Below are positions 536 to 14,092 of a stretch of DNA of 14,092 nt, in pieces (position 1 is the stretch's first letter; every line of letters starts with the position of its first letter). A program made the position numbers and the translations under genes. Location: the NCBI GenBank assembly GCA_045599485.1, contig JAZRWA010000022.1:1-14092 (forward strand). The letters run 5' to 3'. The DNA comes from Clostridia bacterium (GTDB taxonomy: Bacteria; Bacillota; Clostridia; Christensenellales; Aristaeellaceae). The notes under the pieces were generated by a model. The model was not told where the DNA came from, ran no database searches, and saw only the letters and a list, made by a program, of their open reading frames with translations.

Positions 536-1339
536 TTACCGCCGTCCCAGCTGCCAGAAGGCCACAGCGCCGGCGGCAGCCACGTTCAGCGAATCCACCC
601 CGTGCGCCATGGGAATCAGCACGGTGTAATCACAGCCGCGGATGGTTTCCTCGCGCAGTCCGTTGCCTTCCGCCCCCAGCACCAGCGCCAGACGCTCCTA
701 TGCCATCAGCCGCGCGTCGTCCACGGCAATGGAACGCTTCGTCAGTGCCAATGCCGCCGAGGCAAAACCCAATGTCTTCAGCTCTCCCGCCACATCGTTG
801 GAGGGCAGGTACGCCCAAGGTACCTGAAAGACCGTGCCCATGCTGACACGTACGGCACGCCGGTGCAGCGGGTCACAGCAGGAGGGGCTCAGCAGCACCG
901 CCTCCATGCCCAGCGCGGCGGCGGAGCGGATCAGGGCGCCGATGTTGGTAGCGTCCGTCACGGCTTCCAGCACGGCGACGCGGCGCGCGCCCCGGCATGC
1001 CTCTCCGGCGGTGCGTTCGGGCGGCCGCTTCATCAGACAGCGGATGCAGCGGTCCGGCATGCAGCCGAGGATGTCGCCCAGCAGCGCATCGGGTCCGGTA
1101 TATACCGGTACGCTGTCATCACAGCGGGCCAAAGCCTCTGCCGCCTGCCCCGTGATGTGCTTTTTTTCCATCATAAAGGCCACGGGGGTGAGCCCCGCGT
1201 CCAGCGCGTGCAGCACCACTTTGCCGCTTTCCGCCATGAAAAGCGCTTCCCGGGGGCGCTGCAGGCTGCGCAGCTGCGCGTCGGTGCGCCGGAAGGGCTC
1301 CAGCTCCGGGGCGTTCGCATCCTTTACTTCAATGATCAT
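536..1339 (-). CDS. TrmH/SpoU family RNA 2'-O-methyltransferase, 267 codons if the in-frame TAG at complement(698..700) is decoded
   Basis: The track ORF 698..1339(-) ends ...SIAVDDARLMA at a TAG. The same frame continues ERLALVLGAEGNGLREETIRGCDYTVLIPMAHGVDSLNVAAAGAVAFWQLGRR to a TAA at 536-538. SpoU motif 1 (LEAVTDATNIGALIRSAAALG) is upstream of the TAG; motifs 2 and 3 (LVLGAEGNGL, IPM..GVDSLNVAAAGAVAFW) are downstream. GGAGG RBS at complement(1345..1349), 5 nt before the ATG. Confidence 0.85.
698..700 (-). other. In-frame TAG codon inside the TrmH-family gene (candidate sense/recoded UAG)
   Basis: Minus-strand reading ...CTG ATG GCA TAG GAG CGT CTG GCG CTG GTG CTG GGG GCG GAA GGC AAC... 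= L M A * E R L A L V L G A E G N. There is no frame change. Confidence 0.8.
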
Positions 1340-1487: not shown

Positions 1488-2537
1488 ATGGAGCAATCCG
1501 TTCTGGATGAGATCGGCGGCATTCTTTCCTCTTTGGACAGCCGCGTGCTGCTGCTGGATGCGTCGGGCACTTGTCTGGCCCCGTCCGCGGGGGAAAAAAT
1601 AACGCTGCCCAGGCATTTATCCTTCGGCGGCGTGGCGGAAAAAGACGGCAGGCTGTTTTTTGCTTCCGCCCGGGAGCCGCTGATCATTGCCTCCGATAAA
1701 CAGAACGGCGGCGATGTGCCGCTGATGGCGCTGCGGCTGTGCGAAAGCCTGCTGACGCGCCGGCGTACGGAGGGCGAAGGAAGCTTTTGGTACCGCCTGC
1801 TGACGGGCACACTTTCCGCCGGATAGACCGAAGCGTTGATCCGTGAGAACGGCATTGAGGACGCGCTGCGGGCGGTCATGATCCTGCAATTGCCTGCTTT
1901 GAAACATGGCACGGCGCAGGAAATGCTGGAGGCCAACCTGCCGCTGACCCCGGGACACGATGTGCTGGTGCCGCTCGACAGCCGCACGGCGGCGCTCATC
2001 AAGCCCGTTTCGGCGGGAGACAGCCCGCAGGACCTGATGGAATACGCCGAGGCGGTGCGTGAAACGCTGCTCAGCGAGGAAGGCGAAGACGCTGTGATCG
2101 CCGTAAGCGACATCATCGGCGAAGCCGCCGCGCTGCATGCCGCCTTTCAGCACGCGGGCGAAGCCATGGAAACAGGCCGTACCTTCCGCCCGGAAATGCG
2201 GGTCTACGGCTATGACGCGCTGCTGCTGGAGCGCTTTCTCAGCGATATTCCGCCCGAGACAGCGGCACGCTACCACCAACTGCTGTTCAACCGCCGCACC
2301 GCACGTGTGCTGACGGAGGAGATCCTGGACACAGTCAGCATGTTTTTTGAAAAGGACCTGAACCTGTCGGACACGGCCCGGCAGCTGTACATCCATCGCA
2401 ACACGCTGGTATACCGTCTGGATAAGATCCAGCGGCTGACCGGTCTGGATCTGAGAAAGTTTGATGATGCCGTGACCTTCCGCATGCTGCTTGAAATGAA
2501 AAAATGCGCAGAGAAGGGAAAGCACCCTACTGCCTGA
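1488..2537 (+). CDS. PucR/CdaR-family transcriptional regulator (C-terminal PucR HTH), 349 codons if the in-frame TAG at 1824..1826 is decoded
   Basis: Track ORFs 1488..1826 and 1836..2537 are in the same frame (348 nt apart). They read ...YRLLTGTLSAG * TEALIRENGIEDALRAV... The C-terminus carries the PucR-type HTH (LNLSDTARQLYIHRNTLVYRLDKIQRLTGLDLR). RBS AAAGGAGAA at 1472-1480, ATG at 1488, TGA stop at 2535-2537. Confidence 0.8.
1824..1826 (+). other. In-frame TAG codon inside the PucR-family gene (candidate sense/recoded UAG)
   Basis: GCC GGA TAG ACC GAA GCG TTG ATC CGT GAG AAC GGC = A G * T E A L I R E N G. The frame is unchanged, and the DNA-binding domain is encoded about 600 nt downstream. 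Confidence 0.75.
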
Positions 2538-2552
2538 CGGAGGAAAACAAAC

Positions 2553-3767
2553 ATGAAAAAACGGTTTTTTGCCCTGCTTTTATGCCTGGTGCTGTGCTGC
2601 TCCGCGGCTTTGGCGGACAGCGTTTTCGGCAACAACGGCGTGTTTGGCGTGGGCGGCACGGTCACCATTACCCGGGCGGAATACGAGCGCCTCAAGCAGT
2701 ATGAAAAGCTGGACGAGGTGCTGCAGTATATTGAAGCCTACTATTACAAAGAGCCCGACACCGGCGACATGATGGACATGGCCATTCAGGGCCTGCTGGC
2801 CGGCTTGAATGACCCCTATACCTTCTATTATGACGCCGAAGCCTGGGCGGACATGTGGGAGGAGGAAGAGGGCGAGTACACGGGTATCGGTCTGCAGCTG
2901 CTGGGCAGCTATCTGGACTACACCGTGACCATCACCCGTGTCTTCCGTGATACCCCCGCCGAAAAGGTGGGGCTGAGAAAGAATGACCTGCTGGTGCGTG
3001 TGGAGGACATCACCGTGACCACCGAGACCATGCAGAACGCCGTCAATGTGATGCGCGGCAAGGTGGGCGAAAGCGTGGAGGTGGAGGTGTACCGCGACGG
3101 CGAATACCTGACCTTTACGGTCGAACGCGCCGCCATCCACACCAACAATGTGGATTGGTGCATGCTGGATAACAACGTGGGCTATCTGATCCTGTACCAG
3201 TTCTCCACGGAATCGCTGCTGCAGGATTTCAAGACCGCATTGAAGGACCTGGAGGCGCAGGGCGCCAGGAGCCTGGTGCTGGATCTGCGTGACAACCCCG
3301 GCGGCTGGGTCAATGACGCCGTCGGTGTGGCGGATGTTTTCCTGGATAAAAAACTGGTGGTCTATTCCCGTACCCGTGACCAGGAACGCACCGATGAGCA
3401 GTATACCAAAGCCGGGGCGGATGATATTCCGCTGGTGGTGCTGATCAACGGCTCCTCCGCTTCGTCCAGCGAGATCTTGTCCGGCTGTCTGCAGGATTAC
3501 GGCCGCGCCGTCATCATGGGCAGCCAGAGCTTCGGCAAGGGCGTCATGCAGTATGTGATCGGCCTGTCCGATAACAAGACGGGCATGCAGTTTACCTTCT
3601 GCGAGTACTTTACCCCCAACGGCAACAGCGTGCACGGCATCGGCATTACCCCGGATATCGCGGTGGAAATGCCCGCCGATCTGAAAAACAAGCTGTTTGA
3701 GGTAGGCGACATGGCCGACCCGCAGCTGGCGGCGGCATGGGAAGAGGCCGTGCGCCTGCAGCAGTGA
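2553..3767 (+). CDS. S41 family C-terminal processing (tail-specific) protease, exported
   Basis: 404 aa. Signal peptide MKKRFFALLLCLVLCCSAALA/DS, a PDZ-like region, the S41 serine motif (LINGSSASSSEILSGCLQD) and the FGKG lysine motif. GGAGG at 2539-2543, TGA stop. Confidence 0.9.
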   Translation: MKKRFFALLLCLVLCCSAALADSVFGNNGVFGVGGTVTITRAEYERLKQYEKLDEVLQYIEAYYYKEPDTGDMMDMAIQGLLAGLNDPYTFYYDAEAWADMWEEEEGEYTGIGLQLLGSYLDYTVTITRVFRDTPAEKVGLRKNDLLVRVEDITVTTETMQNAVNVMRGKVGESVEVEVYRDGEYLTFTVERAAIHTNNVDWCMLDNNVGYLILYQFSTESLLQDFKTALKDLEAQGARSLVLDLRDNPGGWVNDAVGVADVFLDKKLVVYSRTRDQERTDEQYTKAGADDIPLVVLINGSSASSSEILSGCLQDYGRAVIMGSQSFGKGVMQYVIGLSDNKTGMQFTFCEYFTPNGNSVHGIGITPDIAVEMPADLKNKLFEVGDMADPQLAAAWEEAVRLQQ

Positions 3768-3779
3768 CGGGAGGTTCAA

Positions 3780-4742
3780 GTGAAAAAACGGATATCGACC
3801 TTTTTGCTGCTGATGCTGCTTGTGTCGCTGCTGTGCCCGGCGGTGCTGGCGGATGAGGTGATTCCCGCCCATGATAAGCACGAACGCCCCGAGATCGAGG
3901 GCATGGGGGAGGACGGTTTTCTGACACAGGCGGAGGCGGAATTTGTGCTGGCCGATGCAGAAGAAGGCCTGTGGATGTATGTCAGCGATGCCCTGCGCAT
4001 TGAAATTGACCGCTACACCGCCTCCAACCGCAAGCTGATCTGGTACACCGCGCACATATGGCAAAAGGAAGGGGACGGCATGCACACCTTCCTGGCCGAC
4101 CCGGCGCATCCCTTCGGTCTAGCGCTGCTGGTGGAGGAAATTGCCCGGCAGTATCAATTGGTGTTTGCCATCAATGGTGACTTTTTTGAGGATCGTTACC
4201 GTGAGGGCGAAAAGATCGGCTGCGTCATCAAAAACAAAGTGGTCATCAACCGCTATGCGCAGGAACTGGATAACCTGCCCACGCTGGATGTGCTGGCGCT
4301 GTTTGAGGACGGCACCATGAAATGCTTTAGGGCGCGCAGCAACAGCGCGGACAAATATCTGGCCATGGGCGTGCGCGACACCATCTGCTTCGGTCCCATT
4401 CTGGTGTCCGAGGGCAGCATCAATATGAAGCAGCTGGAGGAATACGGCCGCTCCCGCGAGCCGCGCACCGCGCTTGGCATGGTGGAAAACGGACATTATG
4501 TTGCCATCGTCTGCGAGGGACGCTCGGAGGAGAGCGACGGCCTGCGCCTGAGTGAGCTGGCCCCCCTGATGCAGGCGGAGGGCTGTGTGGAAGCGCTCAA
4601 CCTTGACGGCGGTCAGACCTCGGTCATCAGCTTTATGGGCGAAAAGCTCAATGCCACCGGTACCTTCCATAACAGCTCCAGACCGCGCCGCGTGACGGAT
4701 ATCGTGGGCATTGGCGTAAGCGATCTGGTTTCCGCCGAGTAA
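3780..4742 (+). CDS. Phosphodiester glycosidase family protein (NAGPA / DUF2233-like), exported, paralog 1
   Basis: 320 aa, GTG start 5 nt after GGGAGG (3769-3774). Signal peptide MKKRISTFLLLMLLVSLLCPAVLA/DE. Family-typical motifs: REPRTALG...GHYVAIVCEGR and EALNLDGGQTSV. TAA stop. Confidence 0.8.
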   Translation: MKKRISTFLLLMLLVSLLCPAVLADEVIPAHDKHERPEIEGMGEDGFLTQAEAEFVLADAEEGLWMYVSDALRIEIDRYTASNRKLIWYTAHIWQKEGDGMHTFLADPAHPFGLALLVEEIARQYQLVFAINGDFFEDRYREGEKIGCVIKNKVVINRYAQELDNLPTLDVLALFEDGTMKCFRARSNSADKYLAMGVRDTICFGPILVSEGSINMKQLEEYGRSREPRTALGMVENGHYVAIVCEGRSEESDGLRLSELAPLMQAEGCVEALNLDGGQTSVISFMGEKLNATGTFHNSSRPRRVTDIVGIGVSDLVSAE

Positions 4743-4766
4743 ACAACAGAGGAGAAAAACAACCAT

Positions 4767-5711
4767 ATGAAAAAAGCGCTGATGGCGCTGCTGCTTTTGC
4801 TTTCGGTGTGCGGCGGCGCGCTGGCGGATGTGCCGGTGAGAGCCAATGAGCCGTGTGCCCGCCCCGAGGTGGAAAACCTGGGGGAGGATGGCTATCTGAC
4901 CGAAACGGATGAGCTTGTGTTCATCGATGAAACGGCGGGACTGTGGTACTATGTCAGTGATGAGCTGCGCGTGGAGATCGACCGCTATACGGCCTCCGAC
5001 CGCAAGCTGATCTGGTATGTGGCGCATCTGTATCAGAAAACGCCCACTGGTCTGCGTACCGCGCTGGCAAATGAAAAAAAGCCCTACGATGACCGCATGT
5101 GGGTGTATGATCTGGCTGAGAGGGAAAAGATGGTCTTTGCCACCAACGGCGATTATTTTGCCACCCGTCTGGATGAATCCGCCGGTGTGGGCATCGTCAT
5201 CCGTCATGGACGGGTCATCAGCTCCAAGGGCAAAGCGAGCAGCAAGATCCCCACGCGGGAGATCATCGCCATGTATGAGGACGGCAGCATGAAGTGCTAT
5301 GGCGCCAACGAATACAAGGCGTCCTCTCTGGCGGAAGCCGGCGTGCGTGATACGCTGTGCTTTGGCCCCATTCTGGTACGGGATGGGCAGGTGGAGACCA
5401 AACGCCTGGACGAGATGGGCTCCTCCCGTGAGCCGCGGTGCGCTATCGGCATGGTGGAGCCCGGCCATTATGTGGCCATCCTGACGGAAGGCCGTACGGA
5501 TGACTCGATCGGCGCACGTCTTTTGACGCTGGGCGATATGATGGCGGCGGAGGGCTGTGTGGAGGCGCTGAACCTGGACGGCGGACAATCGGCTGTCATG
5601 TGCTTCATGGGCAAAAAGATCAGCTCCACCGGGCATACTTCCACCAGCACCCAGAGCCGCAAGATGACCGACATTGTCGGCATCGGCTACAGTGAACTTG
5701 TAGGACAGTGA
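4767..5711 (+). CDS. Phosphodiester glycosidase family protein (NAGPA / DUF2233-like), exported, paralog 2
   Basis: 314 aa. Signal peptide MKKALMALLLLLSVCGGALA/DV. Collinear with the upstream paralog (EIDRYTASDRKLIWYVAHLY, REPRCAIGMVEPGHYVAILTEGR, AEGCVEALNLDGGQSAV). TGA stop. Confidence 0.8.
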   Translation: MKKALMALLLLLSVCGGALADVPVRANEPCARPEVENLGEDGYLTETDELVFIDETAGLWYYVSDELRVEIDRYTASDRKLIWYVAHLYQKTPTGLRTALANEKKPYDDRMWVYDLAEREKMVFATNGDYFATRLDESAGVGIVIRHGRVISSKGKASSKIPTREIIAMYEDGSMKCYGANEYKASSLAEAGVRDTLCFGPILVRDGQVETKRLDEMGSSREPRCAIGMVEPGHYVAILTEGRTDDSIGARLLTLGDMMAAEGCVEALNLDGGQSAVMCFMGKKISSTGHTSTSTQSRKMTDIVGIGYSELVGQ

Positions 5712-5713
5712 AT

Positions 5714-6892
5714 ATGAAAAAAATGCTGATGTATGCCGTGCTGCTGCTGACGCTGCTGATGACGGCGGCGTGTGCAGAGACGGCGGCGGAGCGTACCGCC
5801 TCCTGCACATTCAAGCTGGGAAAAACGGCTTTGACACAGAAGGAACGCGGCAAGCTGCTGGACAGGGATTATTCCACCCATTATGATATCGCGAGCCGCA
5901 AAACACTGACCATCGAAAGCGAAAAGCAGCTGGGCGGCATGTACCTGCAGATCTTTGATGTGGTGCGCGCGCTGACCATGGAAGTGAAAACCAACGGCGA
6001 ATGGCAGGAGTACTGCGTCAATCCCCAGCATCTGAGCGACTGGTACGCTTTCCCGGATAAGACCACGGCAGTGCGCATTTACAACGCCGATAAGGAAAAC
6101 AAGCTCAAGCTGGCGGAAGTGACCCTGTACGGCCCCGGGGACAAGCCCGAAAAGGTACCGCAGTGGATCGATCTGGAGAAGTGCGACCTGATGCTTCTGG
6201 CGACGCATCCCGATGACGATCTGCTGTGGTTCGGCGGCCTGATGCCCACCTACGCGGGGGAAAGGGGCTACAAGGTGCAGGTGGTGTACATGGTGCCCAC
6301 CGGCGGACTGCGCAAGCTGGAAATGCTGGACGCCCTGTGGACCTGCGGCGTCACGGCTTATCCCGGCCTGCTCAATCTGCGCGACCAGCGCGGCAAAAAC
6401 CTCAGTGAGCAGTACTCCCTGTGGGGACAGAAGACCGTCACCACCAAGGTGGTGGAGGCCATCCGCCGCTATAAGCCGTAGGTGCTGGTCACGCATGGTC
6501 TGGGCGGTGAATACGGACACCCCGGTCATAAGGCCGCGGCGGATACCGTGACGCGCGCCGTCGGTTATGCCGCGGATAAAAGCAACCGCCCCGCCTCAGT
6601 GGAAAAGTACGGTGTGTGGCAGGTCAAAAAGGTCTATCTGCATGAGTACAGCAAAAATCAGATCGAGATGGACTGGCATGTGCCGTTGGAAGCCTTTGGC
6701 GGCAAGGACAGCCTGACCGTCGCGCAGGAGGCCATGCTCTGCCACGCCAGCCAGGTCAAGGGCGGCTGGATGGTGGAGGACCACGGCAAGCATGATAATA
6801 CGCTTTTCGGTCTTTACAGCACCACGGTGGGTGAGGACATCGAGAAGAATGATTTTATGGAAAATATCGTCCTGGAGAACAATACACCGTAA
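5714..6892 (+). CDS. PIG-L/LmbE family deacetylase with lipoprotein-type signal and extra N-terminal domain, 392 codons if the in-frame TAG at 6479..6481 is decoded
   Basis: Track ORFs 5708..6481 and 6482..6892 are contiguous in the same frame: ...VVEAIRRYKP * VLVTHGLGGEYGHPGHKAAA... The PIG-L motif LLATHPDDDLLWFGG is upstream of the TAG and the HP(G/D)H motif is downstream. The likely start is ATG 5714 (MKKMLMYAVLLLTLLMTAAC, lipobox-like); GTG 5708 is an alternative. TAA stop at 6890-6892. Confidence 0.8.
6479..6481 (+). other. In-frame TAG codon inside the PIG-L deacetylase gene (candidate sense/recoded UAG)
   Basis: TAT AAG CCG TAG GTG CTG GTC ACG CAT GGT = Y K P * V L V T H G. It sits inside the conserved 'R.xKP-x-VvvTH' stretch of the family. 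Confidence 0.8.
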
Positions 6893-6898
6893 CGCATG

Positions 6899-6928
6899 GA
6901 AAGGGAGTCCGGATGAGGGCTCCCTTTC
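6899..6928 (+). terminator. Stem-loop after the PIG-L gene (possible terminator or mRNA-end structure; lacks a clear U-tract)
   Basis: GAAAGGGAG (6899-6907) pairs with CTCCCTTTC (6920-6928), extendable by TCC/GGG. It starts 7 nt after the TAA. It is followed by TGACAAAC, which is not T-rich. Confidence 0.4.
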
Positions 6929-6967
6929 TGACAAACAGGATTTGAACATTTCTTGCTCGGTTGTTAT

Positions 6968-6996
6968 TTGAAATTTTTTTCGGGAGAGTATATAAT
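6968..6996 (+). promoter_or_regulatory. Sigma-70/SigA-type promoter for the glycosyltransferase gene
   Basis: TTGAAA (6968-6973), 17-nt spacer, TATAAT (6991-6996), in an AT-rich intergenic region about 30 nt upstream of the ATG at 7027. Confidence 0.55.
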
Positions 6997-7026
6997 AGAA
7001 AAAAGACCGAAAAAAGGAGGTGCACG

Positions 7027-8298
7027 ATGGAACCAAGGATCAGAACAGCTTTGCTGAACGACTCTTTTCCGCCGCAGATCGACGGCGTGGCCAACGCGGT
7101 GATCAATTATGCCTCGCTGCTGCATGGCCGCGGGGATGATGTCATGGTGATCACGCCGGCCTATCCCGGTGTGGAGGATCATTATGATTATGAGGTGCTG
7201 CGCTATTCCAGTGTGGACACCACCAAGATCATCGGTTATCGTGCCGGTTACCCTTTTTCGGCTTCCGCTGTGCAGCGGGTGGTGGATTTTGCCCCTGATA
7301 TTCTGCACACGCATTGCCCCGTCTCTTCGCTGCTGATGGCCCGCGTGGTGCGGTAGAGGACCGGTGCGCCCATTGTGTTTACCTATCATACCAAGTTTGA
7401 TATCGATATCCGCACCGCCATCAAAAGCAAGGCACTGCAGGACAGCCTGATCCGCGCCATTCTGTGGAACATTGAGGGCGCCGATGAGGTATGGACGGTC
7501 AGCCGCGGCGCGGGAGAGAATCTGGAATCCATCGGCTATCAGGGCAAGTGGCGCGTGATGGACAACGGTGTTGATTTTGCCCGCGGTCACGCCTCGATGG
7601 AAAAACAGAACGAGATCAGCCGCCTGCATAACCTGACCGATCACGCACCGGTGTTTTTGTTTACCGGCCGTCTGCGCTGGTACAAGGGCATCCGCATCAT
7701 TCTTTAGGGTCTGGCCAAGGCCAAAGCCCGCGGCGCCAAGTTTCATATGCTGTTTGTGGGCGATGGCAGCGACCGCGGTGAGATCGAGGAGCTGGCGCAA
7801 AAGCTGGGGCTGACCGATCAATGCGTCTTTGTGGGCGCGGTGCAGGATCGTGAGCTGCTGCGGGCGTATTACAGCCGTGCCGATCTGTTCCTGTTCCCGT
7901 CTACCTTTGATACCAACGGCATCGTGGTGCGCGAGGCGGCCGCCTGCGGTCTGGGTGCCGTGCTGGTCAAGGGCAGCTGTGCCGCCGAGGGCATTACCGA
8001 TGGACAGAATGGCATCCTCATCGGTGAAAATGCCGACAGTCTGTGCGCGGCGGTGCTGTTTGCCTGCTCCCACCGCAATGAAGTGCGGCAGGTCGGCCTG
8101 CATGCGGAGAATGAGATCTATCTTTCCTGGGAGGATTCGGTGGCGCGGGCTCGTACCCGTTATGCCGAGCTGCTGGAGGAGCGCAAAGCAAACCCGCCGG
8201 AAAAGCGGCATGATGCCTTTCCTTTCCTGTCCGACATTGTGGAGGGCGCCGGCCGCCTGCAGCGGTGGCATCGCCTGCTGAACGCCAAGCTGAAGTGA
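7027..8298 (+). CDS. Family 4 (GT-B) glycosyltransferase, 423 codons if the two in-frame TAGs (7354..7356, 7705..7707) are decoded
   Basis: Track ORFs 6961..7356, 7375..7707 and 7747..8298 all share one frame. They read ...CPVSSLLMARVVR * RTGAPIVFTYHTKFDIDI... and ...GRLRWYKGIRIIL * GLAKAKARGAKFHMLFVGDGSD... The N-terminus is GT4-like (LNDSFPPQIDGVANAV). The C-terminal Glycos_transf_1-like domain has FPSTFDTNGIVVREAAACG. AAGGAGG at 7013-7019, ATG at 7027, TGA stop at 8296-8298. Confidence 0.85.
7354..7356 (+). other. In-frame TAG codon #1 inside the GT4 gene (candidate sense/recoded UAG)
   Basis: GTG GTG CGG TAG AGG ACC GGT GCG CCC ATT GTG TTT ACC TAT CAT = V V R * R T G A P I V F T Y H. No frame change. 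Confidence 0.8.
7705..7707 (+). other. In-frame TAG codon #2 inside the GT4 gene (candidate sense/recoded UAG)
   Basis: ATC ATT CTT TAG GGT CTG GCC AAG GCC AAA = I I L * G L A K A K. It lies in the 'KG(l/i)xxLlxAl' helix that opens the C-terminal Rossmann domain. Confidence 0.8.
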
Positions 8299-8418: not shown

Positions 8419-8510
8419 TGGCGGAGAAGGAGAGATTTGAACTCTCGCTGCCGTTATCCAGCACTACTCCCTTAGCAGGGGAGCCCCTTCGGCCTCTTGG
8501 GTACTTCTCC
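8419..8510 (-). tRNA. tRNA-Ser (anticodon GCU), class II with long variable arm, CCA encoded
   Basis: Minus strand folded by hand: GGAGAAG-TA-CCC..GGG-G-CTCCC-CTGCTAA-GGGAG-(20-nt variable arm)-GAGAG-TTCAAAT-CTCTC-CTTCTCC-G-CCA. The anticodon loop CU-GCU-AA reads AGY. Confidence 0.9.
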
Positions 8511-8532
8511 ATCGGTCGGTAATCGGCAAAAC

Positions 8533-8621
8533 TGGCGGAGAGAGAGGGATTCGAACCCCCGGTGCCTTTCGACATCACCAGTTTTCAAGACTGGCGCCTT
8601 AAACCGCTCGGCCATCTCTCC
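8533..8621 (-). tRNA. tRNA-Ser (anticodon UGA), class II with long variable arm, CCA encoded
   Basis: Minus strand folded by hand: GGAGAGA-TG-GCC..GGC-G-CCAGT-CTTGAAA-ACTGG-(variable arm)-GGGGG-TTCGAAT-CCCTC-TCTCTCC-G-CCA. The anticodon loop CU-UGA-AA reads UCN. Confidence 0.9.
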
Positions 8622-8794: not shown

Positions 8795-8831
8795 AACTGA
8801 TTGTGGCAACGCCACAGGAAGGAGGGCACTT

Positions 8832-10421
8832 ATGCTCGCAGAGGAAGTAGCCCGCAGAAGAACATTTGCTATTATCTCCCATCCCGACGCCGGCAAAACC
8901 ACATTGACCGAAAAACTGCTGCTGTACGGCGGCGCCATCCGCCAGGCCGGTTCCGTCAAGGCCCGCAAGGCAGAACGCCACGCGACCAGCGACTGGATGG
9001 AGATCGAAAAGCAGCGCGGCATCTCCGTTACCTCCAGTGCCATGCAGTTCTCCTTCAACGGTTTTGATATCAACATTCTCGATACCCCCGGCCATCAGGA
9101 CTTTTCCGAGGATACCTACCGCGTGCTGGTGGCAGCGGACAGCGCTGTGATGCTCATCGACGCCGCCAAGGGCGTGGAGGAGCAGACCATCAAGCTGTTC
9201 AAGGTGTGCCGTATGCGCGGCATTCCGATTTTTACCTTTGTCAACAAGATGGACCGTGCCGCCAAGGATCCCTTCGCCCTGATGGACGAACTGGAAAACG
9301 TGCTTGGCATCCACGCCTGCCCCATCAACTGGCCCATTGGCACCGACGGCGATTTTCAGGGCGTGTATCACCGTGATACCCGCATGATCGAATTGTATTC
9401 CGGCGGCGATCACGGCAAGAACAAGGCGCAGAAGACCGATGTTTCTCTGGACGATCCCGACCTGGGAACGCTGCTGGAAAAGCACTACATCAACCGCCTG
9501 AATGACGAGATCGAGCTGCTGGACGAGGCCGGCGACGATTTTGATCTGGAGGCCGTGCGCGAAGGCAGGCTGACCCCCATGTTCTTTGGCAGCGCCGTCA
9601 CCAACTTCGGTGTGGAGCCTTTCCTGGAGCGGTTCCTGTCCTACACCACGCCGCCCCTGCCCCGCGAGAGCAATGAGGGCTGGGTGCAGCCCGATGATGA
9701 ACGCTTCAGCGGCTTCATCTTCAAAATTCAGGCCAACATGAACCCCGCCCACCGTGACCGTCTGGCCTTCCTGCGCATCGTCAGCGGCCAGTTCACCAAA
9801 GGCATGACGGTGTGGCATTCCGGCACCGGCAAGGAGATCCAGGTCAAGCAGCCGCAGCAGTTTATGGCAGATGAGCGTGAAGGCATCGAAACGGCCTGGC
9901 CCGGCGATATCATCGGTCTGTTCGATCCCGGTATTTATCATCTGGGCGACACGCTGTGCGTGGGCCGCAAGATCCGCTTCCAGAAGATCCCCGTGTTTGC
10001 GCCCGAGCATTTTGCCCGTGTGCGTCCGCTGGATTCGATGAAGCGCAAGCAGTTTGTCAAGGGCATCATGCAGCTGAGCGAGGAAGGCGCCATCCAGACC
10101 TTCCGCCGCACCGAGACCGGCATTGAGGATTTCCTTGTCGGCGTGGTCGGTGTGCTGCAGTTTGATGTGCTGACCTACCGCCTCAAGAGTGAGTACGGTG
10201 TCGATCTGGTACTGGAGCAGTTGCCCTTCCGCTATGTGCGTTGGGTGACCGCCACCGAGATCCCCGTGCCCGACCTGAAGCTGACCAGCACCTCCGGCCG
10301 TGCTTTTGACGCCGAGGAGCGGGATGTACTGCTGTTTGAAAACGAGTGGAGCATCCGTCTGGCACAGGAAAACAACAAGGGCCTGGAGCTGGCCGAACTG
10401 GCTCCCCGCGAGATCTACTGA
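8832..10421 (+). CDS. prfC: Peptide chain release factor 3 (RF3), translational GTPase
   Basis: 529 aa starting MLAEEVARRRTFAIISHPDAGKTTLTEKLLLYGGAIRQAGSVKARK...DWMEIEKQRGISVTSS...DTPGHQDF..NKMDR. This is the characteristic RF3 N-terminus with G motifs, and the length is RF3-like. ATG 8832 lies 5 nt after GGAAGGAGGG. TGA stop at 10419-10421. Confidence 0.9.
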   Translation: MLAEEVARRRTFAIISHPDAGKTTLTEKLLLYGGAIRQAGSVKARKAERHATSDWMEIEKQRGISVTSSAMQFSFNGFDINILDTPGHQDFSEDTYRVLVAADSAVMLIDAAKGVEEQTIKLFKVCRMRGIPIFTFVNKMDRAAKDPFALMDELENVLGIHACPINWPIGTDGDFQGVYHRDTRMIELYSGGDHGKNKAQKTDVSLDDPDLGTLLEKHYINRLNDEIELLDEAGDDFDLEAVREGRLTPMFFGSAVTNFGVEPFLERFLSYTTPPLPRESNEGWVQPDDERFSGFIFKIQANMNPAHRDRLAFLRIVSGQFTKGMTVWHSGTGKEIQVKQPQQFMADEREGIETAWPGDIIGLFDPGIYHLGDTLCVGRKIRFQKIPVFAPEHFARVRPLDSMKRKQFVKGIMQLSEEGAIQTFRRTETGIEDFLVGVVGVLQFDVLTYRLKSEYGVDLVLEQLPFRYVRWVTATEIPVPDLKLTSTSGRAFDAEERDVLLFENEWSIRLAQENNKGLELAELAPREIY

Positions 10422-10439: not shown

Positions 10440-12266
10440 ATGATTCGTTCTGATATCCGCAACATTGCGATTATCGCCCACGTTGACCACGGCAAGACCT
10501 CCCTGGTCAACGAAATGCTCAAGCAGGGCGGCGTTTTCCGTGCCAATCAGGAGGTGGCTGACCGCGTCATGGACTCCAACGATCTGGAGCGCGAGCGCGG
10601 CATCACCATTCTGTCCAAAAACACGGCGGTGCACTACGGCGATGTCAAGATCAACATCGTCGACACCCCCGGCCACGCCGACTTTGGCGGCGAGGTGGAG
10701 CGCGTGCTCAAAATGGTGGACGGCGTGCTGCTGCTGGTGGACAGCTTTGAAGGTCCCATGCCGCAGACCCGCTTCGTGCTGTCCAAGGCGCTGGCGCTGA
10801 ACCTGCCCGTGCTGATCTGCATCAACAAGATCGACCGTCCCGACGCCCGCTGCGGCGAGGTGGTGGACGAGATCCTCGATCTGCTGATCGACCTGAACGC
10901 CGATCCCGAAACGCTGGAGCGCCCCATCCTGTATGCTTCTGCCCGCAAGGGTACCTGTACGCTGGATCTGGAGCAGCCCGGCACCGACCTGCGTCCGCTG
11001 TTTGAAGCCATCCTCAAGTACATTCCCGCCCCCGAGGGCGAGATGGATGGCCCTGCGCAGGTGCTGATCTCCACCATTGACTACAGCGAATACGTGGGCC
11101 GTATCGGCATCGGCCGCATCAGCCGCGGCAGCCTGAGATCCGGTCAGATGGTGGTGCGCTGCAACTATCTGGATGACAAGGTGACGCCCCCGTGGCGCTT
11201 GACCGAGCTGAGCACCTTTGACGGCCTCAAGCGTATCCCGACCGATCAGATGGCCATGGGCGATATCGTGGCGCTGACGGGTCTGCAGGATATCAGCATC
11301 GGTGATACGGTGTGTCAGCCCGATACGGTGGAGCCCCTGCCCTTTGTGACCATCAGCGAGCCCACGGTGACCATGACCTTCTCGGTCAACGATTCGCCCT
11401 TTGCCGGCCGCGAAGGCCAGTTTGTGACGAGCCGTCACCTGCGTGCCCGTCTCTATCGTGAACTGCAGACCGATATGTCCCTGCGCGTCAAGGACGGCGA
11501 AACGCCCGATTGCTTTGAGGTGTGCGGACGCGGTGAGCTGCATCTGTCCATTCTGATCGAGACCATGCGCCGTCAGGGCTATGAGTTCCAGGTGTCCAAA
11601 CCCGAGGTCATCTACAAGGAGATCGACGGCGTATCCTGCGAGCCCATTGAGCGCATGGTGGCGGATGTGCCCTCCGCTTATGCCGGCGCCGTCATCGAAA
11701 AGATCGGCCGCCGCCGCGGCACGCTGGAAAGCATGGACGGCACCGACCGTGTGCGCCTGGAGTTCCTGGTGCCCAGCCGCGGACTGTTTGGCTACCGCAG
11801 TGAGTTTTTGACCGATACCCGCGGCGAAGGCGTGATGAGCTCGGTATTTGAAAAGTACGAGCCCTTCCGCGGCGACATTCCGCACCGCGCTGTGGGCGCC
11901 CTGATCGTGCACGAAACGGGCGAGACCACGACCTATGGTCTGTTCTACGCGCAGGAGCGCGGCACGCTGTTCATGGGCAATCAGGTGCCTGTGTACGCCG
12001 GTCAGATCTGCGGCGCAAGCAGCCGCCCCGGCGATATCCCCGTCAATGTTTGCCGCAAAAAGCATGTCAACAACATCCGCAACAGCTCTGCCGCCGAAGA
12101 CAGCATGCGCCTGGTCAGCGTGCATCCGCTGACGCTGGAGGAGTGCCTGGAGTTTATCGACAGCGATGAGCTGCTTGAGATCACGCCCAAGACCCTGCGC
12201 ATGCGCAAGCGTGTGCTGAGCCATGAGCAGCGCATGAAGAACGCTGCCCGCGGCATCAAGTGCTGA
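10440..12266 (+). CDS. typA: Translational GTPase TypA/BipA
   Basis: 608 aa. [24 protein letters not shown]..., [37 protein letters not shown], and a C-terminal BipA-type domain. TGA stop. Confidence 0.92.
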
Positions 12267-12868
12267 CGCCGCTGCTTTCCGCCATAGGCATAGCAGTTTG
12301 CCTGCCGCTGTTTATGCGGCTGAAAAGAAAGGCAAACGTGCCGATGGCTGCGGTGCTGGCAGCCAAATGCGGCGGCACGGCGATGGCGGCGCTGATGGCC
12401 CTTCAGGGTGCGCTGCGGCTGAACACCGCGGGAGCATGGCTGATGTTTGCCGCCGCAGTGGTGTGCGTCGTTGCCGATGGGGTGCTGCATGTGCGCTTTT
12501 TTGCCGGCGGCATCCTGTTTGCCCTGGGGCATGTGCTGTACATGATCTCCTTCTGTTTGCGGGGATTGCCGGGCTGGCAGAGCGCTGTGATGTTTGCGCT
12601 GCTTGCCGCGTCCGCGATGGCGTTTATCCGCATACAGAACGAAAAGCCGCAGCCCTTCATTGTGCCCTACGCGCTGGTGCTGTGCCTGATGACCGCCATG
12701 TCCTTTTCAAGAGGTCCCCTGTGCTTTGCCGGGGCGCTGCTGTTTGCCTTTTCGGATGGCATGCTGCTGTGGCGCATGGAAGGGCATCACAGTGAAGCCT
12801 CCGACTGGGTCGCCATGGGCAGCTATTACGCCGCGCAGTATTTGCTGGCATTGTCGCTGCTACGGTGA
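12260..12868 (+). CDS. YhhN-family (lysoplasmalogenase-like, TMEM86-type) integral membrane protein
   Basis: About 202 aa, multi-pass hydrophobic, with YhhN-like motifs (ILFALGHVLYM, GALLFAFSDGMLLW). The GTG start at 12260 overlaps the typA TGA (GTGCTGA). An internal ATG start at about 12314 cannot be excluded. TGA stop. Confidence 0.65.
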   Translation: MLTPLLSAIGIAVCLPLFMRLKRKANVPMAAVLAAKCGGTAMAALMALQGALRLNTAGAWLMFAAAVVCVVADGVLHVRFFAGGILFALGHVLYMISFCLRGLPGWQSAVMFALLAASAMAFIRIQNEKPQPFIVPYALVLCLMTAMSFSRGPLCFAGALLFAFSDGMLLWRMEGHHSEASDWVAMGSYYAAQYLLALSLLR

Positions 12869-12886
12869 AAAAGGGGCAAAAAAGAC

Positions 12887-12916
12887 TTGTCAAGGAACCA
12901 CTTTGTGTGGTATAAT
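12887..12916 (+). promoter_or_regulatory. Sigma-70/SigA-type promoter (extended -10) for rplS
   Basis: TTGTCA (12887-12892), 18-nt spacer ending in TGG, TATAAT (12911-12916). It leaves a leader of about 95 nt before the rplS ATG. Confidence 0.55.
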
Positions 12917-13014
12917 TACCCTTGCGTAAACGGATGGTCCGCTTTCGGACAGCAACGGTCTGTACCTGACCGGTCCGGAATGAACATCTATGAGGGAAGG
13001 AGGAACTATTCAAA

Positions 13015-13365
13015 ATGAGCGAAATTATCAAGAGCATTGAAAATGCGCAGCTTCGTACCGATCGTCCCGCATTCAACGTTGGCGACACCGTGCGTGTGCA
13101 GGTCAAGGTTGTTGAAGGTACCCGCGAGCGTCTGCAGGCGTTCGAAGGTGTTGTGATTGCCAAGCGCAATGGCTCCTGCCGTGAGACCTTTACGGTCCGC
13201 CGCGTGAGCTACGGCATCGGCGTGGAACGTACGTTCCCGCTGCATAGCCCCCGTGTGGACAGCATTACTGTTGTCCGTAAGGGCAAGGTGCGCCGCGCCA
13301 AGCTGTATTATCTGCGTGGTCTGCAGGGCAAGGCTGCCAAGATCAAGGACATCACCCGCGAATAA
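13015..13365 (+). CDS. rplS: 50S ribosomal protein L19
   Basis: 116 aa: [111 protein letters not shown]. This is a canonical L19. GAAGGAGG RBS, TAA stop. Confidence 0.95.
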
Positions 13366-13382
13366 TCAAAGGTCGTCCTTTC

Positions 13383-13417
13383 AGAGGAAGAGGAGCAATC
13401 CTTTTCCTCTTTTTTTC
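13383..13417 (+). terminator. Rho-independent terminator of rplS
   Basis: AGAGGAAGAGGA (13383-13394), GCAA loop, TCCTTTTCCTCT (13399-13410). 12-bp stem with one G-U pair, followed by TTTTTTC. Confidence 0.85.
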
Positions 13418-13447
13418 TCAGTGGAGTATCTTGAGGAGGTTCAGTTG

Positions 13448-14092
13448 ATGTATAAAAGAATGATGGTTTTGCTGTTGGCACTGCTGCTGTTTGGCACAGC
13501 GGCTTTGGCGGACAGTGATGCTTCCATTGAGTTTCGCTCTGTTCCGTGGGGAACATCGGTAATGGAAACCTGTGCGCGGATCTTGCAGGCGGCAAAAGAC
13601 GGCAATACGCTCACTGCGGAAGCGATGGCAGCGAATAGCGTGGAAGGCGCCACGTTCCTTTCTGTGCTGACCGACTGGAAGGGGGATATGGTGCCTGTGC
13701 CAATGATCGCACAGGGACCGTGTTTCAAGCTGGTTGCCACAGACCGTGTGAGCCTGAAGATGGCCGGGCATGATGTTGACACCCTGTGGCTGGGTTTTGT
13801 CAGGGAGCAGGGCGAATGGAGCCTGGCGACGGTACTGATCGGCCTGAAAGCCGGCAGCGGTACCGATGCACAGTTTGAGGATCTGTCCGCAAAGCTGACC
13901 CAAGTGTATGGCGACAGCCATGAGAAGAACGGTTATGCCTGGTGGGAAGGAAAGGACAGCACCATGGTGGGGCTGGTGGCGCAAAACAGGGACGCCTGGT
14001 ATATGAACGCATTGAGCGCGGATGCCTCCCTGTGCTATGTGAATGTGCTGATGTACGCGAAAGTGTACAGCATGGAGGCGGTGGAAAACATG
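13448..14092 (+). CDS. Exported hypothetical protein, N-terminal 215 codons (3' end outside window)
   Basis: Translated by hand: ATG 13448 lies 8 nt after GGAGG (13435-13439). MYKRMMVLLLALLLFGTAALA/DSDASIEFRSVPWG... is open with no stop to the window end, which is why it is missing from the ORF track. Typical Sec signal peptide. No family recognised. Confidence 0.7.
   Translation, partial: MYKRMMVLLLALLLFGTAALADSDASIEFRSVPWGTSVMETCARILQAAKDGNTLTAEAMAANSVEGATFLSVLTDWKGDMVPVPMIAQGPCFKLVATDRVSLKMAGHDVDTLWLGFVREQGEWSLATVLIGLKAGSGTDAQFEDLSAKLTQVYGDSHEKNGYAWWEGKDSTMVGLVAQNRDAWYMNALSADASLCYVNVLMYAKVYSMEAVENM

Follow-up and report, generated by a model that had tools for sequence, protein, structure and literature searches.

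The DNA analysed here, called the window, is a 14,092-nucleotide contig of an uncultured Clostridia bacterium with a G+C content of ~59%. Its gene content is chromosomal (prfC, typA, tRNA-Ser and envelope genes), and it carries a PIG-L/LmbE deacetylase gene whose reading frame contains a TAG codon. The features of this gene are as follows.

5714-6892, plus strand: PIG-L/LmbE deacetylase gene of 392 codons, from the ATG at 5714 to the TAA at 6890-6892
6206-6220, plus strand: HPDDD motif, first metal-binding/catalytic motif (H165-D169; THPDDD is 164-169), 5' of the TAG
6479-6481, plus strand: in-frame TAG at codon 256, the single internal stop of the gene
6518-6529, plus strand: HPGH motif, second metal-binding motif (H269-H272), 13 codons 3' of the TAG

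The original prediction placed this TAG inside the PIG-L domain, between the HPDD and HPGH motifs, and this location was confirmed. Read directly, the context is AIRRYKP*VLVTHGLGGEYGHPGHKAA, as had been quoted, and one Pfam PIG-L match (PF02585; residues 160-282; 46.5 bits, cut-off 28.2) bridges codon 256. In the alignment with M. tuberculosis MshB (1Q74/4EWL), the HPDDD motif corresponds to MshB H13-E17, with H165 and D168 aligned to H13 and D16, and H269 and H272 aligned to H144 and H147. The established zinc ligands of MshB, H13, D16 and H147, thus have their counterparts on both sides of the TAG. Because the HPGH motif lies 3' of the TAG, a protein terminated after codon 255 would be left without the third zinc ligand, and the motif positions support the earlier claim that such a truncated product would be inactive. 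H165, P166, D167, D168, H269 and H272 are invariant among 47 homologues. The deposited PIG-L protein of the window is a 255-residue fragment.

The complete protein consists of a signal peptide, a CBM32/F5-8-type-C-like beta-sandwich and the PIG-L/LmbE deacetylase domain, and is a secreted protein. Its structure was considered through the AlphaFold model of an orthologue, P0001, which is 81% identical to the window PIG-L (pLDDT 95.9). In this model, the LmbE-fold domain is one continuous unit, and the site of codon 256 lies between helix 239-253 and strand 257-260. Foldseek searches matched the C-terminal domain of P0001 to MshB, BC1534, BshB and TT1542 (E-values from 1e-11 to 1e-8) and the N-terminal domain to CBM32. 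Assignment to the PIG-L/LmbE family is supported by the Pfam score, the AHPDD-type motif and the HxxH motif and, through the orthologue model, by an LmbE-type alpha/beta fold; the protein falls far under the equivalog cut-offs of MshB, Mca and BshB1. It shares the fold and the HPDD and HxxH motifs with the MshB/BshB/LmbE (PIG-L) zinc deacetylases, but differs from them in being secreted and in its additional N-terminal CBM32-like domain. The putative substrate is likely to be a cell-envelope or glycan GlcNAc.

Four further in-frame TAG codons were found in three other genes of the window.

698-700, minus strand: TAG at codon 214 of a SpoU/TrmH-type methyltransferase gene (536-1339, minus strand), in the Pfam SpoU_methylase match (residues 121-261)
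1824-1826, plus strand: TAG at codon 113 of a PucR/CdaR-type regulator gene (1488-2537)
7354-7356, plus strand: TAG at codon 110 of a GT4 glycosyltransferase gene (7027-8298)
7705-7707, plus strand: TAG at codon 227 of the same GT4 glycosyltransferase gene (7027-8298)

All five in-frame stops in these four conserved genes, which are unrelated to one another and supported by homology, are therefore TAG, with neither TAA nor TGA among them. Single Pfam matches bridge the TAGs in PIG-L, in SpoU and in the N-terminal domain of GT4, and the TAG at GT4 codon 227 falls within the Glycos_transf_1 match. The codon is rare, accounting for 5 of ~3,900 codons in the window (~1.7% of Glu codons), and is absent in frame from prfC and typA, the most conserved genes of the window. 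No sequence context common to the TAGs was found, nor any stable RNA structure 3' of them (z-scores from -0.7 to +1.2).

As a terminator, TAG was not seen in any of the clade genes available, and the 11 gene ends in the window consist of eight TGA and three TAA. This sample is small, and TAG terminators are likewise missing (0 of 39) from relatives with 50-65% PIG-L identity (such as CALCUD01) that have no in-frame TAG, so that the missing TAG terminators are weak evidence for the lineage of the window. The background TAG-stop usage of ~11%, obtained with our own GC3-based gene caller, can serve only as a rough guide, this caller having picked antisense ORFs in the window.

One way to accommodate an internal TAG would be to suppose that the genes are split, translation stopping at the TAG and restarting to give two polypeptides that assemble. 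The PIG-L gene is the one place that invites this view, since its TAG is directly followed by GTG (6482), a possible restart codon. The codons following the other four TAGs (ACC, AGG, GGT and GAG), however, are not start codons, and no Shine-Dalgarno-like sequence was found 5' of position 6482. Judged from the orthologue model, the break would separate a helix from a core beta-strand within a single domain, and the same proteins are uninterrupted in relatives. Separately expressed halves, which had been named beforehand as a finding that would speak against decoding, are thus disfavoured, and we regard split genes as highly improbable.

The window was compared with related assemblies. A sister species, which includes the MAG Horse_feces223, is represented by L001 (ENA ERZ27247129), L002 (NCBI JAKSQG01, horse faeces), L015 (Logan SRR27361835) and L017 (Logan ERR6929691); these are 86-90% identical to the window at the nucleotide level and 95-100% identical among themselves. 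L012 served as the outgroup, and the clade is sampled by contigs no longer than 14 kb. Five assemblies (the window, L001, L002, L015 and L017) share the TAG at GT4 codon 110, where L012 has GAG. At the other sites, the codons of the sister species are GAT or GAC (PIG-L codon 256), GAA (GT4 codon 227, in L001, L002 and L015; SpoU codon 214, in L015) or GAG (PucR codon 113, in L015). The outgroup has GAG at each of the three TAG sites that it covers, PIG-L codon 256 and GT4 codon 227 included. The exchange also occurs in the opposite direction, at sites where the window carries a Glu codon and a relative carries TAG.

4263-4265, plus strand: GAA (Glu162) of the first NAGPA gene; TAG in L001 and L002, GAA in L015
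1136-1138, minus strand: GAG (Glu68) of the SpoU gene; TAG in L015
650-652, minus strand: GAG at SpoU codon 230; the second SpoU TAG of L015

The genes concerned are maintained. The genes of the relatives have full orthologue length, with no frameshifts and no internal TAA or TGA, and the PIG-L orthologues are intact (392-393 codons) in L001, L002, L015 and L012, so that the independent disruptions in close relatives that would have indicated a decaying locus were not observed. The overall dN/dS 3' of the TAGs is 0.04-0.09, with values of 0.08 for PIG-L (137 codons, dS 0.85), 0.05 for GT4 and 0.04 for NAGPA1, and the conserved TAG has been retained across ~0.5 synonymous substitutions per site. 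With five TAGs in four conserved genes and purifying selection downstream of the PIG-L TAG, the earlier proposal that this codon is decoded rather than terminating is well supported.

These data bear directly on whether the TAGs could reflect gene decay through nonsense mutation, or systematic errors made in sequencing or assembly. GAG becomes TAG by one G-to-T change, the window comes from a low-coverage MAG contig, and both the NCBI and the Prodigal gene calls split the TAG-bearing genes, all of which could be expected of pseudogenes or artefacts. Against this, the TAG at GT4 codon 110 recurs in assemblies from different samples made with different assemblers, the full gene lengths and low dN/dS values just described are not those of decaying genes, and the TAGs have no sequence motif in common while every one of them stands at a Glu position. 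Pseudogenes or artefacts are therefore strongly disfavoured as an explanation.

The residue represented by TAG was examined in alignments of homologues. In the PIG-L column, 100 of 119 close homologues (84%) have Glu, followed by Asp (13), Ser (2), Ala (2), Leu (1) and Gln (1); the MshB residue at this position is His. The original prediction described this column as usually Asp and sometimes Glu or Gln; all three residues do occur, but it is Glu, not Asp, that dominates. The site is indeed usable for inferring the inserted residue, as had been suggested, although it is not the best anchored of the five, being surpassed by PucR codon 113, where Glu occurs in 118 of 120 sequences (98%) and Asp in the other two. 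Glu is also found in 102 of 119 sequences (86%) at GT4 codon 110, in 64 of 120 (53%, with 43 Asp) at GT4 codon 227 and in 48 of 144 at SpoU codon 214, where it is the most frequent residue. Among the variable SpoU sites, Glu is the most frequent residue at two of three and level with Asp at the third, so that it is top or joint top in all seven TAG columns tabulated. The log-likelihoods summed over these columns are -5.6 for Glu, -17.8 for Asp and -28.9 for Gln.

The mutational origin of the TAGs must be considered when these columns are read. Under a uniform nonsense-mutation spectrum, GAG-to-TAG changes represent 16% of the paths in these genes, and the probability that ~8 independent sites would all fall at Glu positions by chance is, taken alone, 0.163^8, or ~5e-7. 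As alignments, the column data are compatible with insertion of Glu or of another tolerated residue at former GAG codons, and they do not formally separate the two. The meanings of UAG known in association with prokaryotes are, moreover, Gln (in phages) and pyrrolysine (in archaeal code 34 and in bacterial methyltransferases), the changes from Glu to Gln or Asp are conservative, and Asp is the residue at the PIG-L site in the sister species. A sense codon for Gln (in the manner of code 15 or through a tRNA-Gln(CUA) suppressor), for pyrrolysine or for Asp is nevertheless very unlikely. Gln and Asp lie 23 and 12 log-likelihood units below Glu, and Gln makes up 0-8% of the seven columns. A Gln meaning also predicts that new TAGs would arise from CAG, of which there are 106 codons in the window, and would appear at Gln columns, and no such case was found. 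A bulky lysine derivative is improbable at the PucR column, and methylamine methyltransferase and pyl genes are absent nearby.

Two established meanings of TAG were rejected as candidates on gene content as well. Pyrrolysine decoding does not suit the set of TAG-bearing genes (SpoU, PucR, PIG-L, GT4 and NAGPA), and neither pyl nor mtt (methylamine methyltransferase) genes were detected in the window. The phage code 15 (TAG = Gln) does not suit a segment with chromosomal gene content and the low share of Gln in its columns.

The decoding machinery was sought in the sequences at hand. ARAGORN and Rfam identified only tRNA-Ser(GCU) and tRNA-Ser(UGA) in the window, and the clade loci likewise have just two tRNA-Ser genes. 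Neither the window nor the 30 loci screened, L001-L028 included, yielded a tRNA(CUA). A scan of JGI metagenomes with a tRNA-Glu-type CUA anticodon arm (ACRCCGCCYTCTAAMGGCGGTARC) gave one match, located within a coding region and not in a tRNA, and a looser tRNA-Glu-like CUA pattern gave 11 matches in IMG/VR, with no tRNA among them. Such pattern scans presuppose a conserved tRNA-Glu stem, and their negative outcome therefore says little. The window does contain a conserved prfC gene, which encodes RF3 and says nothing on RF1.

The termination machinery matters for the most credible of the alternatives, in which decoding is ambiguous: RF1 would still stop at TAG, and a fixed Glu-inserting amber-suppressor tRNA would read through it, giving a mixture of truncated and full-length products. 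The scarcity of TAG and its absence from prfC and typA would suit such a state, the loss of RF1 is something that we infer, and an ambiguous intermediate stage has been suggested for other code changes (10.1101/2024.09.30.615893). Yet the GT4 gene carries two TAGs, so that the loss of product would be compounded, the TAG at its codon 110 has been held through the synonymous divergence noted above, and TAG ends no gene seen in the clade. Ambiguous decoding is thus unlikely, if less so than the other alternatives.

The TAGs are real, they are conserved or interchangeable with GAR codons, and they occupy Glu-dominated columns in genes under purifying selection. On this comparative basis, UAG is probably a rare Glu sense codon, and not a terminator, in this uncultured Clostridia lineage, comprising the species of the window and its sister species. 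If UAG is Glu, the PIG-L gene would yield a single secreted deacetylase of 392 residues with Glu at position 256, for which the predicted tryptic peptide over this codon is YKPEVLVTHGLGGEYGHPGHK, and the four other TAGs of the window would be decoded likewise. The decoder would be a dedicated tRNA with the anticodon CUA, whose C34 would leave TAA as a stop. This tRNA would be charged with Glu by GluRS and would be left unconverted to Gln by GatCAB, and release factor 1 would be lost, weakened or no longer competing. New TAGs would be born from GAG by a G-to-T change, which is synonymous in the proposed code. The anticodon is an identity element of bacterial GluRS, so that Glu charging of a CUA tRNA would need some adaptation.

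With more reserve, we are inclined to regard this as the first natural bacterial code to give UAG over completely to a canonical amino acid (Glu), and as one reached via codon capture. In this scenario, a wider group of gut Clostridia, such as the relatives with no TAG among 39 terminators, would first have ceased to end genes with TAG. RF1 would then have become dispensable and been lost, and a tRNA(CUA), derived from tRNA-Glu and escaping GatCAB, would finally have come to decode TAG, with TAG/GAR turnover still ongoing between strains. The TAG/GAR polymorphism between 95%-identical strains, together with a possibly TAG-free sister group, would make codon capture and the ambiguous intermediate testable against each other.

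Published counts of bacterial codes give only three (tables 11, 4 and 25), to which this one would, if confirmed, be added as a fourth, and a literature search that was not exhaustive found no report of a bacterial code with UAG assigned to an amino acid. It would also be the first case of a cellular bacterium using the amber codon for a standard amino acid, with an ordinary G+C content in place of a reduced, AT-rich genome. In practical terms, gene callers that assume code 11 split or truncate the genes of such MAGs. The lineage bears as well on the conflict between phage and host codes in the gut, an environment in which phages with a recoded TAG abound. Biotechnology may gain from it a natural Glu-inserting amber-suppressor tRNA/GluRS pair, as well as an example of a bacterium that naturally does without RF1.

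Among known systems, the closest in meaning are the nuclear codes with UAR read as Glu, which are used by peritrich ciliates (NCBI table 30) and Blastocrithidia (table 31). Release factors differ between the two settings, bacteria having RF1 and RF2 and eukaryotes a single eRF1. The likeness lies in the reading of UAG as glutamate and in the position of the TAGs at Glu sites; the eukaryotic codes, however, are nuclear and change UAA and UAG together, whereas here a bacterium is concerned and TAG alone is affected, TAA terminating 3 of 11 genes. UAR-to-Glu eukaryotes are described as decoding these codons with cognate tRNA-Glu species that have mutated anticodons (PMC12153298).

Bacteria are also known to reassign UGA, to Trp in table 4 (Mycoplasmatales and others) and to Gly in table 25 (Gracilibacteria and Absconditabacteria). 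These, too, are genome-wide changes from stop to sense; a suppressor-type tRNA is expected in them, together with loss of the matching release factor, and standard gene callers split genes. The proposed code differs in involving UAG, RF1 and Glu instead of UGA, RF2 and Trp or Gly, and in a genome of ~59% G+C that appears neither AT-driven nor reduced. Code 15 (TAG = Gln) is used by crAss-like, Lak and other gut phages, for which suppressor tRNAs are expected (PMC9523058, PMC7886860); it resembles the proposed code in its recoding of TAG alone and in its gut setting, but the window is a segment of a bacterial chromosome and its columns are Glu, not Gln. Finally, archaeal code 34, in which all TAG codons are pyrrolysine and which, according to its authors, was not observed in bacteria (10.1101/2024.09.30.615893), and bacterial pyrrolysine decoding share with the proposed code the in-frame TAGs in ordinary prokaryotic genes and the two stop codons that are left. 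Code 34 depends on pylTSBCD and is linked with the metabolism of methylamines, whereas the TAGs described here take the place of conserved Glu residues.

The PIG-L gene runs on the plus strand from an ATG at 5714 to a TAA terminator at 6890-6892, and its single in-frame stop is a TAG at 6479-6481, codon 256 (context AIRRYKP*VLVTHGLGGEYGHPGHKAA). The original prediction, which placed a decoded TAG inside this gene and before the second metal-binding His motif, was confirmed as to position by the reading frame itself, by the profile alignment proposed with it and by alignment with M. tuberculosis MshB. The Pfam PIG-L profile (PF02585) gave one unbroken match across the TAG (residues 160-282; score 46.5 bits, cut-off 28.2); H165/D168 of THPDDD aligned with MshB H13/D16, and H269/H272 of HPGH with MshB H144/H147. 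Since H147 is a zinc ligand of MshB, together with H13 and D16, a product ending at codon 255 would be without a metal ligand. In its AlphaFold model (pLDDT 95.9), the orthologue P0001, 81% identical to the window protein, consists of a signal peptide, a CBM32-like beta-sandwich and one continuous LmbE-fold domain; in that domain position 256 follows helix 239-253 and precedes core strand 257-260. Against the NCBIfam models for MshB, Mca and BshB1 the PIG-L protein scores far under the cut-offs, and the NCBI-derived protein set contains it only as a 255-residue N-terminal fragment, P0002.

The window (14,092 bp, G+C about 59%), an unannotated complete MAG contig in NCBI, is bacterial chromosome and not phage by its content:

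2-352, plus, uridine-kinase-like 3' end
536-1339, minus, SpoU/TrmH methyltransferase
1488-2537, plus, PucR/CdaR-type regulator
2553-3767, plus, S41 peptidase
3780-4742, plus, NAGPA phosphodiester glycosidase 1 (NAGPA1)
4767-5711, plus, NAGPA phosphodiester glycosidase 2
5714-6892, plus, PIG-L
7027-8298, plus, GT4 glycosyltransferase
8419-8621, minus, two tRNA-Ser
8829-10421, plus, prfC (RF3)
10440-12266, plus, typA
12338-12868, plus, YhhN protein

The conserved cluster at 2553-8298 (the S41 C-terminal processing peptidase, a tandem pair of NAGPA paralogues of about 50% mutual identity, the secreted deacetylase with its CBM32-like and PIG-L domains, and GT4) resembles a locus for remodelling cell-envelope glycopolymers. 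The stretch 12869-14092 holds about 580 bp without a recognisable gene and then, from 13448, a partial ORF whose product has a signal peptide and matches no Pfam family. Five in-frame stops were found in four genes, every one TAG; besides that of PIG-L, these are:

698-700, minus, SpoU codon 214
1824-1826, plus, PucR codon 113
7354-7356, plus, GT4 codon 110
7705-7707, plus, GT4 codon 227

No in-frame TAA or TGA occurs within the window genes, and the 11 genes terminate with TGA (8) or TAA (3), never TAG. Neither a common flanking motif around the five TAGs nor stable RNA structure 3' of them (z-scores -0.7 to +1.2) was found.

Four further assemblies share synteny with the window: L001 (ENA ERZ27247129), L002 (NCBI JAKSQG010000062, 'Clostridia bacterium isolate Horse_feces223'), L015 (Logan SRR27361835) and L017 (Logan ERR6929691). 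With 95-100% identity among themselves but 86-90% to the window, these assemblies are taken together as a sister species, of which they include three strains or more; the JGI contig L012 is a syntenic outgroup (protein identity 65-72%). The L017 codons were taken from its 100% identity to L001 3723-5738, which spans PIG-L codon 256 and both GT4 sites, not from its own codon reads; its gene calls split GT4 as in L001.

TAG sites (gene and codon number): residues of the nearest aligned homologues at the TAG column, then codons in window, L001, L002, L015, L017, L012 (dash, locus without coverage of the site)
PIG-L-256: Glu 100, Asp 13, Ser 2, Ala 2, Leu 1, Gln 1; TAG, GAT, GAT, GAC, GAT, GAG
GT4-110: Glu 102, Lys 8, Asp 5, Gln 2; TAG, TAG, TAG, TAG, TAG, GAG
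GT4-227: Glu 64, Asp 43, Arg 8; TAG, GAA, GAA, GAA, GAA, GAG
PucR-113: Glu 118, Asp 2; TAG, -, -, GAG, -, -
SpoU-214: Glu 48/144, Ala 32/144; TAG, -, -, GAA, -, -
NAGPA1-162: GAA, TAG, TAG, GAA, -, -
SpoU-68: Glu 36, Asp 24 (L015 site); GAG, -, -, TAG, -, -
SpoU-230: Glu 25, Asp 25 (L015 site); GAG, -, -, TAG, -, -

The tabulation proposed with the original prediction made Glu, rather than Asp, by far the commonest residue at PIG-L-256, and the summed log-likelihoods (with pseudocount) were -5.6 for Glu, -17.8 for Asp, -25.2 for Ala and -28.9 for Gln. The TAGs sit at GAG positions, the outgroup having GAG in 3/3 sites covered. Had TAG stood for Gln or Tyr, new TAGs would be expected at columns of those residues, as synonymous descendants of CAG or TAY codons. 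Readings as Gln, Pyl or Asp are disfavoured by the homologue columns and the gene set. With GAA 116, GAG 175 and TAG 5 in the window genes, TAG would make up about 1.7% of Glu codons.

TAG swaps with Glu codons among species and also among strains, and TAG/GAR (GAA/GAG) polymorphism is present among strains only 95-97% identical. The NAGPA1 TAG lies at 1571-1573 in L001 and 106-108 in L002, with GAA in L015, whose SpoU (38-841, minus) carries two TAGs of its own. TAG therefore seems to act like a synonymous variant, with turnover ongoing.

Decay of the genes into pseudogenes, or sequencing artefacts, could also put stops into reading frames. This explanation is excluded: identical TAGs recur across independent assemblies, all in-frame stops of the clade are TAG, and all eight sites are Glu positions, which is not expected from random decay; GAG-to-TAG makes up only 16% of paths to a stop under a uniform nonsense spectrum in the window genes. 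The relatives show no frameshift or other disruption of PIG-L (392-393 codons everywhere), which upholds the predicted decoding. Moreover, Nei-Gojobori estimates of the window against L001 and L002 gave dN/dS of 0.08 past the PIG-L TAG (137 codons; dS 0.78-0.85), 0.04-0.05 past the shared GT4 TAG (314 codons) and 0.04-0.05 past the NAGPA1 TAG. Strong purifying selection thus acts 3' of each TAG tested, at substantial synonymous divergence, and the sequence past the TAGs is, judging from these estimates, translated. On formal grounds, termination followed by restart is conceivable at PIG-L only: a GTG (6482-6484) comes directly after its TAG, for which reason ORF finders give a separate 136-residue ORF (6482-6892); the codons after the other four TAGs are ACC, AGG, GGT and GAG.

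In these genes TAG behaves like a sense codon equivalent to those for Glu, and we hold its assignment to Glu with good confidence. Most probably the TAG at 6479 encodes glutamate and is one among several markers of lineage-wide recoding. Ambiguous suppression with RF1 retained is the main alternative, and an improbable one.

The machinery, namely a tRNA(CUA), its Glu charging and RF1 loss, is proposed with less confidence than the codon's meaning. UAG would be read by a tRNA with anticodon CUA, whose C34 would confine decoding to UAG, with UAA still terminating; this tRNA would be charged with Glu, and RF1 would be lost or outcompeted. Many Clostridia make Gln-tRNA indirectly, through a non-discriminating GluRS and then GatCAB, and a tRNA(CUA) taken by GluRS but ignored by GatCAB would give Glu. 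A tRNA(CUA) is absent from the window and from the 30 loci compared, among which the clade is covered by contigs of 14 kb or less, and two pattern scans, both aimed at a CUA anticodon arm resembling that of tRNA-Glu, gave only non-tRNA matches. The sole JGI-metagenome match (L016 7276-7299) falls within coding sequence on a 44-kb contig and does not represent a tRNA; the 44-kb IMG/VR contig L022 was among 11 viral-scan matches. The tandem tRNA-Ser(GCU) and tRNA-Ser(UGA) between GT4 and prfC, kept in L001 and L002, are both unable to read UAG. The intact prfC (99% protein identity with the sister species, dN/dS 0.02), whose TGA is followed at once by TAG (TGATAG), is uninformative on RF1 presence.

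Amber reassignment was reportedly restricted to phages in the work of Ivanova et al. 2014. Full-text literature searches turned up no description of UAG=Glu as a bacterial code, and papers from 2024-2026 count three bacterial codes (11, 4, 25) with no mention of bacterial UAG assigned to a standard amino acid. In more distant relatives (L012, L029, L030 and L013, the last of these from the same region as L003; PIG-L identity 50-65%), TAG terminates 0/39 pre-called genes and no split genes occur, against roughly 11% TAG stops, by a rough estimate, in other Clostridia loci; TAG may have fallen out of use in a wider group before its capture as Glu. In the literature covered, UAG->Glu is known only jointly with UAA, in the eukaryotic nuclear codes of peritrich ciliates and Blastocrithidia, whereas in prokaryotes and their viruses UAG stands for Gln in some phages (code 15), for Pyl within specific methyltransferases and, in some archaea, for Pyl genome-wide (code 34).
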